Of a stretch of 29,879 bases of DNA, positions 2,981 through 6,573 are shown in pieces; position 1 is the first letter of the stretch; each line of letters begins with the position of its first letter. The translations under genes were made by a program, and so were the position numbers. The notes under the pieces were generated by a model that saw only the letters and a program-made list of their open reading frames with translations, did no database searches and was not told where the DNA came from. This stretch comes from a virus (Duplodnaviria > Heunggongvirae > Uroviricota > Caudoviricetes), in the IMG/VR virus record IMGVR_UViG_2537562092_000001, positions 1 to 29,879 of that record; one strand, given 5' to 3'.

Positions 2981-4123
2981 TCAGAAAGTCACATTCAGTG
3001 TGGCCTGACCGTTATAACCTTCAGCACTGCTGCCGCTGACGCTGTGGGCATAACCGGCCTGAACGCCCAGGGTGATATTTTCCCGGACACGGGCTTCCAG
3101 TCCGGCCTGCAGATCCAGTGATGTGCCATTCTGTGAGGGTGAGAACGTCATGTTACTGCCGGCTGCGGCTGTACCCATGCTCATGTCACCCCGAGAGCTG
3201 AAAGTGCGGATAACAGAAGGCTGTACCCACCAGTTCACCGGCAGTTCACTCACACGGTGTTTTGCACTGTCGCGCAGAGTGTCACGGGATGAGGTGCCTT
3301 CGCCAAAGGTCATATCGTTGTGGCTGCCCAGACGGAAGCCGGCACGCACATGTTGTGCACTGCCATGCCCGAACTTCACATAACCGGCGTTATCCTGGCC
3401 GTCATCCAGGGAGAGCCCCTGCCAGGTGTACTGCAGTTGTGGCTCCAGCATCAGGTTGTCAGTGATACTGAAGGGCAGACCGGTTTCCAGTGAGCCCAGC
3501 CAGCCCCAGCCCCGGGCGCGGAAGTCGTTATTATCCGATGACGCTTTCATGCTGTGGCGGGTTCCCTGTGCCACAATGTCAGCCCACAGGCCGGAGGACG
3601 TGTGTGTCAGATTCAGGTATCCGCCCAGGCTGCCGGCATCATCCCGGACCGTGCCGGCGCGGGAACCGTCATCATCCTTAACATCAACGGAAGAATGGCC
3701 TGCAGCACCATACACCCCTGTCGTCAGAGACATACCGGCAACCTCTGTTCTGAGCAGGTCACCCTCCAGACGGACGAAGCCATAGCTGCCGCTGCTTTCC
3801 GGCGTGGCCCCACGGGCAATACCGCCGTTGTTATCGTGACCGAGATGACCGCCCTGAATGCTGAGACGGACGCTGTTATTTTCACCGCTTACACCGGTCT
3901 GATGGCTGCGGGAGCCTGCCAGAATCCGGTCATAGTCCATTGCCTGTGTCAGCATGGAGGCATACAGGGGGACTTCAGCACGATAAGCATTTTCACTGCG
4001 CAGGTACCAGTCTTCATCGCTGTCACGGTTCAGGGTGTAGTTAAAGGCTCCGGCCTGAAGCGGGCGACTCAGGGCAAACGCACCTTCTTCTGTGGTGGCA
4101 CCATTCTGTGCATCCACAACCCG
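2981..4123 (-). pseudogene. flu: Antigen 43 (Flu) autotransporter, C-terminal beta-domain fragment; 5' part deleted
   Basis: About 380 aa ending ...SVSGSSAEGYNGQATLNVTF with a terminal aromatic residue, recognised as the Ag43 translocator domain. The reading frame runs straight into IS3-family sequence at about 4124, so the passenger domain, signal peptide and promoter are absent. Confidence 0.75.
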
Positions 4124-4879
4124 GATAACCCACCACCGGCATCCATTCGTTCTTCAGACTCCTGAAGAAGCGTTCCATTGGGCTGTTATCCCTGCAGTTT
4201 CCGCGCCGGCTCATACCCTGTCTGATCTGGTATCGCCACAATAACTGCCGGAACTGCCTGCTCGTATAATGACTGCCCTGATCGCTGTGGAACATCACCC
4301 CGCCGGGCTTACCACGGGTTTCCCATGCCATTTCCAGCGCTTTCATGGTGAGCCTGCTGTCCGGCGAGAACGACATGGCCCAGCCCACTGGTTTTCTTGC
4401 GAACAGGTCGAGAACAACGGCGAGGTACGCCCAGCGCTTACCCGTCCAGATATAGGTCACATCACCGCACCACACCTGATTTGGCTCGGTCACGGCGAAC
4501 TGCCTTTCAAGGTAGTTAGGGATAGCAACATGTTCATGACCACCACGTTTATACCGGTGAGTCGGCTGCTGACAGCTGACCAGCCCCAGCTCTTTCATGA
4601 GCCTGCCAGCAAGCCAGCGTCCCATCTGGTAGCCTCTCCGGGTTGCCATTGTGGCGATGCTTCTTGCTCCGGCCGAACCGTGGCTGATGCCATGTAGCTC
4701 AAGTACCTGACTGCGTAATACAGCCCGTCTGCCGTCTGGTTTTTCAGGACGGTTTTTCCAGTATCTGTAGCTGCTGCGATGAACCCCGAACACATGGCAG
4801 AGTGTGACCACAGGATAATGCGCTCTGAGTTTCCCGATTATCGAGAACTGTTCAGGGAGTCTGACATCAAGAGCGCGGT
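4124..4879 (-). pseudogene. IS3-family transposase OrfB fragment plus displaced 3' tail of orfA
   Basis: Lacks the last ~50 codons and terminal IR relative to the complete copy. Codons 4841-4879 encode [13 protein letters not shown], the C-terminus of OrfA separated from the rest by IS30. Confidence 0.7.
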
Positions 4880-6100
4880 TGTAGATTCAATCTGTCAATG
4901 CAACACCCCTTTCAATTATCTCTTTCGGTGTTTTGAACTTCAGTGTCTTTCTCGGTCTGTTGTTTAGCTGAGCAGCAACCAGATCTAGTTCATGTTGAGT
5001 ATATTGGGCAAGACATGTCTTTTTAGGAAAGTACTGCCGAATTAGCCCATTTGTGTTCTCATTTGTTCCCCGCTGCCAAGGACTCTGAGGATCGCAGAAG
5101 TAAACTTTAACGCCGGTGCTGACAGTAAATTCTAGATGTCTGGCCAGTTCCATTCCTCTGTCCCATGTCAGTGATTTTCTGAGTTCTGACGGTAAACTCA
5201 GGAATTTGTCGGTAAGAGCCTGATTTACTGAGACAGAATCTTTGCCCCTGAGTCTAAGGATGATCGTATAACGTGATTTTCGGTCTACAAGTGTGGCTAT
5301 ATGAGAGTTTTTTGTACCTAAGACTAAATCGCCCTCCCAATGCCCCAGAGAGCGTCTGTTATCGATATTTCGGGAACGTTCGTGAATTGGTGTTCCGTTC
5401 ACTATGTTAATCGTACCTCTTTCGCCTTTGCGGGTATGACGCCTGCCATGGCGAAGGCTATGCGACCGTCGCAGATGCTGTATATTCAGGTGGTGTAGCG
5501 CTTCACGGCTACGAAAGTACAGCGTTTTATAAATTGTCTCAGGTGATATTCGCAGCGTTTTTTGACGTGGTTTTGTTCGCCTTAACCATCCTGATATTTG
5601 CTCTGGAGACCATTTCATCTCCAGCTTTTCCAGAACAAGCTTTCGCAATGGTAAATTTTGATCCAGTAAGCACGGTTTTGGCCTTTTCGCCATTCTGTTG
5701 GCTCGGTTATTAGCATCAACAGCTTTGTAATAGCGTCTGCCCCGATTACGCTGAACTTCACGTGAGATCGTCGAAGGACTGCGATTCAGCGCAGTAGCTA
5801 TCGCACGAATGCTCATTTTGGCTGACAAACCAGCTCGTATCTCCTCGCGCTCAGACAGTGTCAGGTGAGCTACAGCCCGCTTACGCTCATGGGGTTTTAT
5901 GCCGCCAGTATCCCTTAACATAGTGAAGATCGTTCCGGGTTTTGAACCCAGGATATTCGCTATTTGACTGAAGCCTGTTCCGTTCTTCCATAGTTCAAAA
6001 ACAGAGGCTTTTTCCTCTGCTGTAAATGTTCGTCTCATTCAAAAAACCTCTGCAACCCCATGTTTTCACATAACTGTTGCGTTGACCAATTGAATCTACA
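4880..6100 (-). mobile_element. IS30, complete (1221 bp)
   Basis: Terminal inverted repeats tgtagattcaat... at 4880 and ...attgaatctaca ending at 6100; the length matches IS30, and it encloses a 383-aa transposase ORF. Confidence 0.9.
4887..6038 (-). CDS. insI: IS30 transposase
   Basis: 383-aa uninterrupted ORF MRRTFTAEEKASVFELWKNGTGFSQIANILGSKPGTIF..., recognised as the IS30 transposase with N-terminal HTH and DDE core. Confidence 0.9.
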   Translation of the reverse strand: MRRTFTAEEKASVFELWKNGTGFSQIANILGSKPGTIFTMLRDTGGIKPHERKRAVAHLTLSEREEIRAGLSAKMSIRAIATALNRSPSTISREVQRNRGRRYYKAVDANNRANRMAKRPKPCLLDQNLPLRKLVLEKLEMKWSPEQISGWLRRTKPRQKTLRISPETIYKTLYFRSREALHHLNIQHLRRSHSLRHGRRHTRKGERGTINIVNGTPIHERSRNIDNRRSLGHWEGDLVLGTKNSHIATLVDRKSRYTIILRLRGKDSVSVNQALTDKFLSLPSELRKSLTWDRGMELARHLEFTVSTGVKVYFCDPQSPWQRGTNENTNGLIRQYFPKKTCLAQYTQHELDLVAAQLNNRPRKTLKFKTPKEIIERGVALTD

Positions 6101-6357
6101 ACGGCTTTTTTTAATATGTCCCGTTCGTCGGTAACCCGCTTCAGCTCTTTCTGGAGACGGCGGATCTCGGCCTGAGCATCTGACTGTTCTTTATTAGTGG
6201 AAGAATCCGGACCGTACTTCTTTATCCAGGAGTAAAGGCTGTGGGTGGTGATATCGAGACGTGTTGCAACGCTGGCAACAGAATAACCGCGATCAACAAC
6301 CTGTTTGACTGCTTCAATTTTAAACTCTTCGGGATAACGCTTACCGCTCATGGGCAC
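6101..6357 (-). pseudogene. IS3-family OrfA, interrupted near its 3' end by IS30
   Basis: Reads ...RRLQKELKRVTDERDILKKAV then runs into the IS30 terminus. A run of A residues at about 6110-6116 resembles the IS3-family -1 frameshift heptamer. Confidence 0.7.
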
Positions 6358-6573
6358 CTCTCTTTAAGTCATCTTAAATGACTCTGAGGTGTCTATTAAA
6401 CCTGTGGCGATTCATTCGTCTTGTTTATCAGGTTATTGATGATATGTTAATTATTGCGGTAGTCGCAGTAGGTAAACGTGAACGTAGCAACGTTTATCAT
6501 CTCGCCAGTGAGCGGATGAAATAATATCCCTGTCAGCACTCTTTTTTATCTGCTGCCGTTTTTTCCGGTGATT

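Follow-up and report, generated by a model that had tools for sequence, protein, structure and literature searches.

How the gene for a phase-variable adhesin, Ag43, came to be reduced to its tail and joined to insertion sequence (IS) debris is the question raised by positions 2981–6414 of the window (the whole stretch of DNA analyzed, i.e., the 29,879 nucleotides of IMG/VR record IMGVR_UViG_2537562092_000001), together with the question of whether that debris is a simple nest of one IS within another. The original prediction had described an Ag43 fragment sharing a reading frame with a single IS3-family element, which in turn hosted the only intact IS of the window, an IS30; the Ag43 fragment, IS911, IS30 and an IS3-family end are all present, but the shared frame, the single host and the sole intact IS did not hold up. 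The region, part of an Escherichia coli genomic island adjoining dsdA/dsdC, has decayed, and its anatomy and junctions can be read directly:

2981–4127, minus strand: 3' remnant of flu (Ag43/Cah autotransporter), codons 568–948 of a 948-aa allele plus the stop codon
4126–4127, minus strand: deletion junction, TA being the sole exact microhomology of IS911 orfB and flu
4126–4879, minus strand: internal fragment of IS911, 754 bp, about nt 334–1087 of the element
4880–6100, minus strand: IS30, complete, 1221 bp, with terminal repeats and an open transposase gene
4887–6038, minus strand: IS30 transposase gene, 383 aa, 3 aa differences from K-12 InsI1
About 6075–6100 (IRL) and 4880–4905 (IRR): IS30 terminal repeats
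6101–6414, minus strand: left end of ISX (K-12 insX type), its left terminal repeat TGAATCGCCACAGG... starting at 6414
6351–6106, minus strand: ISX orfA', 82 codons (MSGKRYPEEFK...), Pfam HTH_Tnp_1
6417–6524, plus strand: RelE-family toxin gene fragment, as annotated by RefSeq for the identical region of strains 13TMH22 and WEC

That positions 2981–4123 are Ag43 is borne out by alignment, as the remnant is identical to residues 568–948 of the 948-aa “Ag43/Cah family autotransporter adhesin” of E. coli strain WEC (381/381) and shares 356 of its 381 residues with K-12 Flu 659–1039. The last 381 codons of flu have been kept and encode a whole PF03797 beta-barrel (Pfam, E = 8e-22, aa 103–354), whereas about 107 residues of the beta chain have been lost, meaning that the supposed reduction to the beta-domain is right for the barrel but not for the entire beta chain, of which 381 of 488 residues (K-12 numbering) are left. 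Barrel and Flu identity are thus those of an Ag43/Cah autotransporter; the N-terminal extended signal peptide and the self-associating passenger have gone with codons 1–567, and IS911 DNA lies in the window in place of the upstream three-GATC/OxyR switch. A TGA at 4156–4154 closes the Ag43 frame on its upstream side, and a search for a hydrophobic leader at the candidate starts of the remnant yielded a best 10-aa Kyte-Doolittle mean of 0.54 vs. 2.41 for the native leader, in line with the prediction that no in-frame start with a signal peptide would be found upstream. The Ag43 frame does not, however, run gap-free into orfB: the two frames differ, IS911 orfB reading 27 codons out of frame into Ag43 DNA before its stop at 4041, on which grounds an in-frame OrfB-Ag43 fusion protein was rejected.

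Because there is no in-frame start carrying a signal peptide, the remnant is, judging by its sequence, a pseudogene (a leftover of a gene rather than a functional member of the family), and RefSeq arrives at the same label, its entry reading [quoted passage not shown] and the pseudogene call recurring in 10 of 5,426 complete genomes. It might be argued that a barrel-only product is still expressed (e.g., by read-through from IS911 or IS30) and functional, as the 378-codon ORF of the remnant is open and 100% conserved in nine of the ten genomes carrying the junction and near-identical in the tenth; the dead IS DNA on its flank, though, matches just as closely, so that this conservation reflects recent common descent, and with the signal peptide missing, the frame shut upstream and the pseudogene label of RefSeq also speaking against it, such expression is most improbable. 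Since the OxyR/Dam switch, promoter, signal peptide and passenger have all been lost, this locus would be unable to yield Ag43, and the barrel-coding fragment left over would be unable to be exported.

The undeleted state of the locus is found in WEC, another strain rather than a direct ancestor, from which the ancestral state is nonetheless read, and which differs from the window by one 9,908-bp gap: window 1–4131 corresponds to 19813–23941 of the WEC locus (L003; 99.90% identity) and window 4126–7782 to 33845–37501 (99.95% identity). A single deletion had indeed been predicted to have removed the 3' end of the IS along with the flu promoter, switch, signal peptide and passenger, and this stands; far from being a small loss adjacent to an IS, it took 9.9 kb, made up of the terminal 162 bp of IS911, nine genes or gene fragments of the island, and the 5' part and promoter region of flu. 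The WEC interval contains:

Genes for full-length Ag43, a GTPase and an HTH regulator, and two hypothetical genes
One gene each of the Hha and inovirus Gp2 families, two zinc-ribbon genes, the 3' end of IS911 and an S16 protease fragment

Upstream of the WEC flu there are three GATC sites with the K-12 spacing (19 and 13 nt), which lie inside the deleted 9,908 bp. The abutment of Ag43 on a 3'-truncated IS3-family orfB, placed at about 4124 by the prediction, was confirmed at 4126/4127. BLAST suggested a 6-bp microhomology (4126–4131) and a 9,909-bp deletion, which was discarded, as it requires a 1-nt gap (the junction match in a three-way comparison with WEC being GGGT(T)A when one gap is allowed), while a base-by-base comparison gives TA and 9,908 bp.

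As ISs commonly delete the DNA flanking them, the transposase of IS911 or IS30 would be an obvious suspect for an adjacent deletion of this sort. Deletions made by a transposase, however, begin exactly at the IS terminus, whereas the endpoint seen here falls 162 bp inside IS911 and 754 bp away from IS30 at 2 bp of microhomology, and IS911 would in any case have had no capacity to make OrfAB once split by IS30. A transposase-mediated adjacent deletion was therefore rejected on account of its breakpoint being internal to IS911, leaving it a very improbable origin for the junction, and we infer that Ag43 and IS911 were joined by one microhomology deletion independent of any transposase.

The junction is no assembly artefact, because it is seen in 10 of 5,426 complete genomes, all of them E. 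coli (nine at 100% identity, the tenth at 99.8%). When these ten genomes were checked for additional flu copies, at least four had no other flu-like sequence on the chromosome. When 23 kb of the sequence were compared with complete genomes, the left 19.9 kb matched 13TMH22-like strains and the right 17.4 kb matched DETEC-P829/F8, with none matching at least 80% in one place. The wider significance of all this is admittedly small: the locus is a case of ordinary gene decay (an Ag43 tail joined to a dead IS fragment), already annotated as pseudogenes by RefSeq, and amounts to the lineage-specific loss of a non-essential, phase-variable adhesin in an island rich in IS debris. Strains with this allele would not be able to produce Ag43 from this locus, and the 4126/4127 junction, being unique, makes a clean clonal marker.

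The IS-derived part of the region is less straightforward than it looks. The IS911 fragment retains the orfB DDE core at IS911-level identity (Pfam rve, E = 2e-31, plus HTH_21), with the D..D..E(35)..K motif still legible in the ORF, but it has neither terminal repeat of IS911 (TGAAGTGG...), no orfA of that element and no A6G frameshift window left intact; the lost 162 bp include some 51 codons of orfB as well as the right terminal repeat (IRR), which WEC still has as part of a complete 3' end, and IS30 separates the fragment from any orfA. Window 4451–6120, comprising the IS30-proximal 429 bp of IS911 and IS30, is 97.6% identical at the nucleotide level to K-12 IS911A-1/IS30A. On the other side of IS30, the ISX left end has its left repeat (TGAATCGCCAC...) and an OrfA starting MSGKRYPEEFK, is 96.8% identical to the K-12 ISX adjoining yagB, and is 97.8% identical over the left 313 bp to an intact 1.25-kb ISX relative, the right repeat of which (...GTGGCGATTCA) matches. 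Its orfA' is interrupted 5 nt past the A7G frameshift heptamer; the flank at IS30 ends GCCGT where intact ISX reads GCCGC, which is either an SNP or the trace of a different event. The composite is bounded on its outer side by the relE fragment, the gene into which ISX inserted. As elements, both of the IS3-family fragments are dead: each retains one end at most, and OrfAB is out of reach for either.

As predicted, the IS30 between them is complete and sits a few codons from the end of orfA (nine, in ISX numbering): it has the 1221-bp length, the imperfect repeats of ~26 bp and the 383-aa transposase (HTH_38 and rve) of that element, and differs from K-12 IS30A by 5 nt. It looks to be the only part of 2981–6414 that might still be mobile, although it is not the only intact IS of the window, as an ISEc31-like IS3-family element at 11951–13208 retains its two terminal repeats, with orfA and orfB both open. 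Window 12850–12885, 6.8 kb from the IS30, holds an IS911/ISEc31-type frameshift site that no IS30 has entered. IS30 yields a 2-bp target duplication and is known to generate deletions, inversions and cointegrates (PMC9333248). No such duplication surrounds this copy, which is flanked by GT on the left and AC on the right (vs. AC/AC in K-12); this absence is due to rearrangement after insertion and is no argument against its identity as IS30. It does mean that IS30 bridges two different elements.

The original prediction had one and the same IS3-family element, IS911, carrying IS30 as a simple nest and being truncated at its 3' end later, which could seem natural, as a true IS911::IS30 nest exists at the same nucleotide in K-12, and RefSeq, while giving the orfB part as “IS3-like element IS911 family transposase”, has no more than “transposase” for the orfA part. 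The left part, however, is less than 70% identical to the left part of IS911 as opposed to 97–98% to ISX, with an OrfA beginning MSGKRY... rather than the MKKRNF... of IS911; the left terminus (TGAATCGCC...) is unlike the right repeat of IS911 as seen in WEC (...GACCACTTCA) and fails to pair with it; and the outer flanks (GAA vs. TGT) lie in unrelated gene fragments. Furthermore, identity to K-12 IS911A::IS30A ends 20 nt past IS30, inside the frameshift motif common to both IS3-family elements, and no similarity was found between the right half of the intact ISX relative and window 4126–4879. A simple nest is thus extremely unlikely, being refuted already by the missing duplication and the break of identity beside the IS30 boundary. 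The structure, consisting of ISX on the left, IS30, and IS911 on the right, is instead predicted to be an IS30-mediated recombinant of two IS3-family elements; it occurs in 82 complete genomes, and ISX::IS30 and IS911::IS30 in parallel orientation both occur elsewhere. IS-in-IS structures, it should be cautioned, are not always simple nests.

As for the order of events, which we infer along with the mechanisms behind both joins, ISX would have entered a relE-like gene and IS911 a position beside an S16-protease gene fragment, at separate sites of the island. IS30 may then have inserted immediately past the 3' side of the -1 frameshift heptamer (ATATTAAAAAARGC NNN), where a conserved sequence matches the preferred IS30 target half-site, after which an IS30-dependent rearrangement would have joined the left part of ISX to the right part of IS911 across one IS30, either by homologous recombination of two same-orientation IS30 copies or by an IS30-mediated deletion. 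Finally, in a sub-lineage (the 10 genomes and the window), the 9,908-bp deletion would have joined the interior of IS911 orfB to flu codon 567/568. Taken whole, a chimera made by IS30-dependent rearrangement and then cut by a microhomology deletion of 9,908 bp is very probably the correct explanation.

The chimera-forming step is known by its product only, because no genome with both complete nested elements at these two sites was found. A single IS30 copy might have done it by intramolecular transposition into the ISX hot spot, without any recombination between two IS30s: the IR-IR junction intermediates of IS30 produce deletions and inversions (PMC9333248), the ISX site fits the preferred half-site of IS30, and this route likewise predicts no duplication. 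Its product, however, would be indistinguishable from that of recombination, for which the complete ISX::IS30 nests in the population offer a possible partner, and the one-copy route is best held as a tentative possibility. A related puzzle is that ISX abuts the IRL of IS30 here but the IRR in K-12; targeting of the inverted repeats (IRs) was considered as the cause and dropped, as IR-targeting preserves the junction type (the orientation rule, as read here, allows IRL-IRR junctions only; PMC9333248), and independent hot-spot insertions in both orientations are a better fit.

The only wider lead to come from the region is that insertion of IS30-family elements into the frameshift window of IS3-family elements recurs: their ends are repeatedly found at one nucleotide, 5–6 nt past the A6G/A7G -1 frameshift heptamer. 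An unbiased sample of IMG/VR contigs had 59 of 89 IS30 ends (19 of 36 distinct flanks) at the frameshift site, with both orientations represented and at least four different IS3-family elements hit, and the site is likewise occupied by diverged IS30-family elements in Aeromonas, Rahnella, Ferrimonas and a Methylococcaceae genome (transposases 82%, 81%, 69% and 43% identical to that of IS30, respectively). In a pattern scan of species-representative genomes, 17 of 49 matches lacked a continuation into the IS30 repeat and were excluded as chance. Targeting of the frameshift site itself looks real; whether it is a by-product of the known IS30 hot-spot consensus, or has already been reported, is uncertain, and it is rather doubtful that IS30 and its diverged relatives prefer this one nucleotide as a conserved, so far undescribed form of IS-against-IS targeting. 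Nothing specific was found in a search of the literature on the 24-bp IS30 hot-spot consensus, IS3-family frameshift targeting and IS911-truncated Ag43, and among the papers compared, of which the 1998 target-specificity paper was not one, none describes the frameshift window of IS3-family elements as a natural hot spot that IS30 hits repeatedly. Were such targeting conserved and undescribed, every insertion would separate orfA from orfB and so disable the IS that was hit, and IS3/IS30 nests would generally supply portable homology for rearrangements of islands such as the one seen here.

The C-terminal 381 residues of flu in K-12 CP4-44 are 93% identical to those in the window (100% for the WEC allele), and CP4-44-type neighbours follow downstream in the window (yeeS, yeeT and a YeeU/CbeA-family gene as in K-12, together with DUF932 and antirestriction genes), but, compared with an intact K-12 or WEC flu, the window lacks the promoter, three GATC/OxyR sites, signal peptide, passenger and first ~107 beta-chain residues. 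K-12 CP4-6 IS911A::IS30A (insN/insI1) has IS30 at the same IS911 nucleotide, with an identical right junction (...GAATCTACA meeting ACCGCGCTC), yet its left part is still IS911, with a perfect AC duplication, where the window has ISX and none, and its IS911 right part is 429 bp long, as opposed to 754 bp followed by flu. In K-12 ISX/IS30B (the insX-insI2 pseudogenes by yagB), ISX is cut by an IS30 terminus at the exact nucleotide seen in the window, although there it is the right repeat, on a 181-bp stump truncated by IS1B, rather than the left repeat of a complete IS30, and ISX itself is located at yagB rather than in a relE fragment. Lastly, the hot-spot and IR-targeted transposition of IS30 described by Olasz, Kiss and co-workers (PMC9333248), with its duplication rule, near-palindromic hot spots, and deletions and inversions, explains the anatomy of the region.

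The segment 2981-6414 carries the 3' part of an Ag43 (flu) gene joined directly to a truncated IS3-family orfB, as the original prediction held and as both the ORF listing and the DNA comparison, which also gave the feature order below, bear out.

Features of the segment, 6414 to 2981
6414, minus strand: IS3-family terminus, starting TGAATCGCCACAGG...
ATG at 6351, minus strand: orfA, truncated, 82 codons
6100 down to 4880, minus strand: IS30, complete, with its transposase gene at 6038-4887
4879-4126, minus strand: IS911 orfB, 754 bp
stop codon at 2981, minus strand: last 381 codons of the Ag43 gene, with no spacer after the IS911 orfB

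Pfam domains were found in each of the coding parts (HTH_Tnp_1 in the truncated orfA, HTH_38 with rve in the transposase of IS30, rve with HTH_21 in what is left of orfB, and the autotransporter beta-barrel domain in the Ag43 remnant, where the entire barrel is present), and the genes 3' of the remnant are the usual island ones: DUF932, antirestriction, yeeS, yeeT and a YeeU-family antitoxin. The sequence is that of E. coli, and RefSeq annotates the identical stretch of strain 13TMH22 as a series of pseudogenes together with an IS30 transposase that is intact.

E. coli strain WEC (NZ_CP114592.1) has this island in undeleted form, in the following order.

Undeleted locus in WEC
1: YeeU-family antitoxin, yeeT, yeeS, antirestriction and DUF932 genes
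2: Ag43, full-length, 948 aa
3: GTPase, two hypothetical genes, HTH regulator, Hha-family, inovirus Gp2-family and two zinc-ribbon genes
4: S16-protease fragment
5: IS911 3' end (complete), then IS30, then an orfA fragment
6: relE fragment

Window positions 1-4131 align to this locus at 99.90% identity and 4126-7782 at 99.95%, the two blocks being 9.9 kb apart in WEC. The 6-bp overlap that BLAST places at the junction was rejected, as it requires a 1-nt gap; in base-level comparison with WEC the exact microhomology comes down to TA (4127-4126), which makes the deletion 9,908 bp, and the window differs from the undeleted locus by this one gap, in keeping with the single deletion proposed originally. 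Alignment to flu, suggested at the same time, puts the break after codon 567 of the 948-aa allele, so that 568 is the first codon retained; in the K-12 protein, of 1039 aa, this corresponds to residue 659. With the alpha/beta processing site of K-12 Ag43 at 551/552 (UniProt P39180), the remnant amounts to ~78% of the beta chain. Three GATC sites lie upstream of the WEC Ag43 gene with the K-12 spacing (19 nt and 13 nt), and the region holding them falls within the deleted interval. The IS has lost 162 bp, among them the right repeat of IS911 and some 51 codons of orfB. A transposase-mediated adjacent deletion was rejected because the break lies inside IS911, at a distance of 754 bp from IS30; judged by its sequence, the junction is a microhomology (illegitimate) deletion.

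The reading frame, however, does not run from Ag43 into orfB without a gap, as had been claimed: the two are in different frames, orfB stopping at 4041 after 27 out-of-frame codons and the Ag43 frame being closed upstream by a TGA at 4156-4154. Candidate starts left to the remnant are limited to GTG 4117, ATG 3955 and ATG 3940, and none of the three has signal-peptide character (the best 10-residue hydrophobicity mean is 0.54, versus 2.41 for the native leader), so that the in-frame start with a signal peptide that would have spoken against the deletion was not found.

The exact Ag43-IS911 junction is present, at 99.8-100% identity, in 10 of 5,426 complete E. coli genomes, their sources being human, pig, chicken, giant panda and wastewater. 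A 1.3-kb megablast probe covering the Ag43 beta region and the junction detects the beta region in about 75% of all genomes (4,044), and has no second chromosomal match in four junction carriers (AMSCJX02, 13TMH22, 2-1 and EC02), in which, therefore, no other flu-like gene is detectable by megablast. Strain DETEC-P829, of a sister lineage, has the same junction and lacks the equivalent of ~4350-12437 (IS30, the insX-type element ISX, a 1165-aa autotransporter and half of an ISEc31-like element), with ~2.4 kb containing a group II intron (ltrA) in its place, which indicates that erosion of the locus is continuing. Biologically, the region is a case of routine island erosion already annotated in RefSeq.

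That IS30 is the only intact IS could not be upheld. The minus-strand IS3-family element at 11951-13208 (1258 bp; ISEc31 family in RefSeq) contains an orfA of 101 codons, an A6G slippery site and an open orfB, bounded by 26-nt terminal repeats that are 81% complementary, and its 13TMH22 counterpart is translated in RefSeq as an intact programmed-frameshift transposase; with gene and both repeats in place it appears to be intact as well, its flanks, AGG and ATG, showing no 3-bp target duplication. The 1165-aa autotransporter gene (7385-10882, minus strand; PATR, VirG-insertion, AC_1/pertactin and beta-barrel domains) is whole here; in 13TMH22 and EC02 an IS3-family insertion interrupts it, so one predicted working autotransporter is retained in the window beside the dead Ag43. 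Between it and ISX, 6417-7210 holds tiny gene fragments in a row (RelE-family toxin, "alkaline phosphatase", hypothetical), a 168-bp piece of which recurs inverted at 18193-18360 with 90% identity. An IS graveyard occupies 13200-19800, with IS66 tnpA and tnpB intact and tnpC frameshifted (15514-~17900), IS4, IS21 and IS66 family transposase fragments, a GntR/FadR regulator and a hypothetical gene. Adjoining this IS-rich island is a P22-like prophage remnant (~19870-29500, plus strand) with a capsid fragment, major capsid, gp4, gp10, tail needle, ejection proteins, Arc and a tailspike truncated at the window end by an IS2-like IS3-family element (29478-29879). Complete genomes cover the left 19.9 kb of the window or its right 17.4 kb, but none has both at a single location.

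IS30-family termini lie, time and again, at a single nucleotide immediately 3' of the -1 frameshift heptamer in IS3-family elements: at 6100/6101 and 4879/4880 here, at the K-12 loci L004 and L006, and at further loci (L009, L010-L119), the hosts being IS911, ISX, ISEc31-like and a third type, in both orientations and several genera. An IS30 terminus occupies the identical nucleotide, 6 nt past TTAAAAAA, in the K-12 IS911, in ISX at two chromosomal positions (the right repeat abutting in K-12, the left in the window) and in a third IS3-family element of strain 98215. A pattern scan over GTDB species representatives gave 49 matches. In ~32 of them an IS30-family repeat adjoins the 3' end of an IS3-family orfA, and among these are elements with transposases that share only 82%, 81%, 69% and 43% identity with that of IS30. 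Of 89 IS30 ends sampled without bias from IMG/VR contigs, 59 (19 of the 36 distinct flanks) fall in the frameshift window or its complementary side, in both orientations, and the remaining, non-IS3 flanks share a half-site, T-N-AAAAA-GGC, to which the frameshift window is a perfect fit; the recurrence is, therefore, most simply a by-product of the known hot-spot preference of IS30. No statement of it was found in the literature searched, the primary target-specificity paper lying outside that search. The ISEc31-like element offers an unoccupied copy of the hot spot, GATATTAAAAAAGGCTACCGCGCTC, within 12840-12899, 6.8 kb from the resident IS30.

The assumption that a single IS carries this IS30 also gives way on comparison with the classic IS911A::IS30A nest of the K-12 CP4-6 prophage (PMC9333248; also compared here). 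Identity to it is 97.6% from IS911 orfB through IS30 and ends 20 nt past IS30, inside a short frameshift motif common to both IS3-family elements; OrfA begins MKKRNFSAEFK... in K-12 IS911 versus MSGKRYPEEFK... in the window, whose left part is 96.8% identical to the K-12 ISX (insX pseudogene adjoining yagB) and 97.8% identical, over 313 bp, to the left end of an intact IS3-family element of 1.25 kb that shows no similarity to 4126-4879 in its right half. In WEC the composite ends on the right with the IS911 right repeat (...GACCACTTCA), for which TGAATCGCC... is no pairing partner. Nor do the outer flanks, GAA and TGT, form a duplication; they belong to unrelated gene fragments (relE and S16 protease). 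The ISX-IS30-IS911 arrangement, relE flank included, occurs in 82 complete genomes, and is thus older than the Ag43 deletion. It probably arose either through recombination of two IS30 copies, each nested in a different IS3-family element, or through an IS30-mediated deletion, both routes being consistent with documented IS30 behaviour (PMC9333248); both parental nest types are found elsewhere. Taken with the IS30 flanks, these comparisons make the structure a chimera of ISX-left, IS30 and IS911-right, with a different IS3-family element on either side of IS30: whereas K-12 IS30A shows the expected 2-bp duplication (AC/AC), the IS30 of the window, with GT as its left flank and AC as its right, does not.
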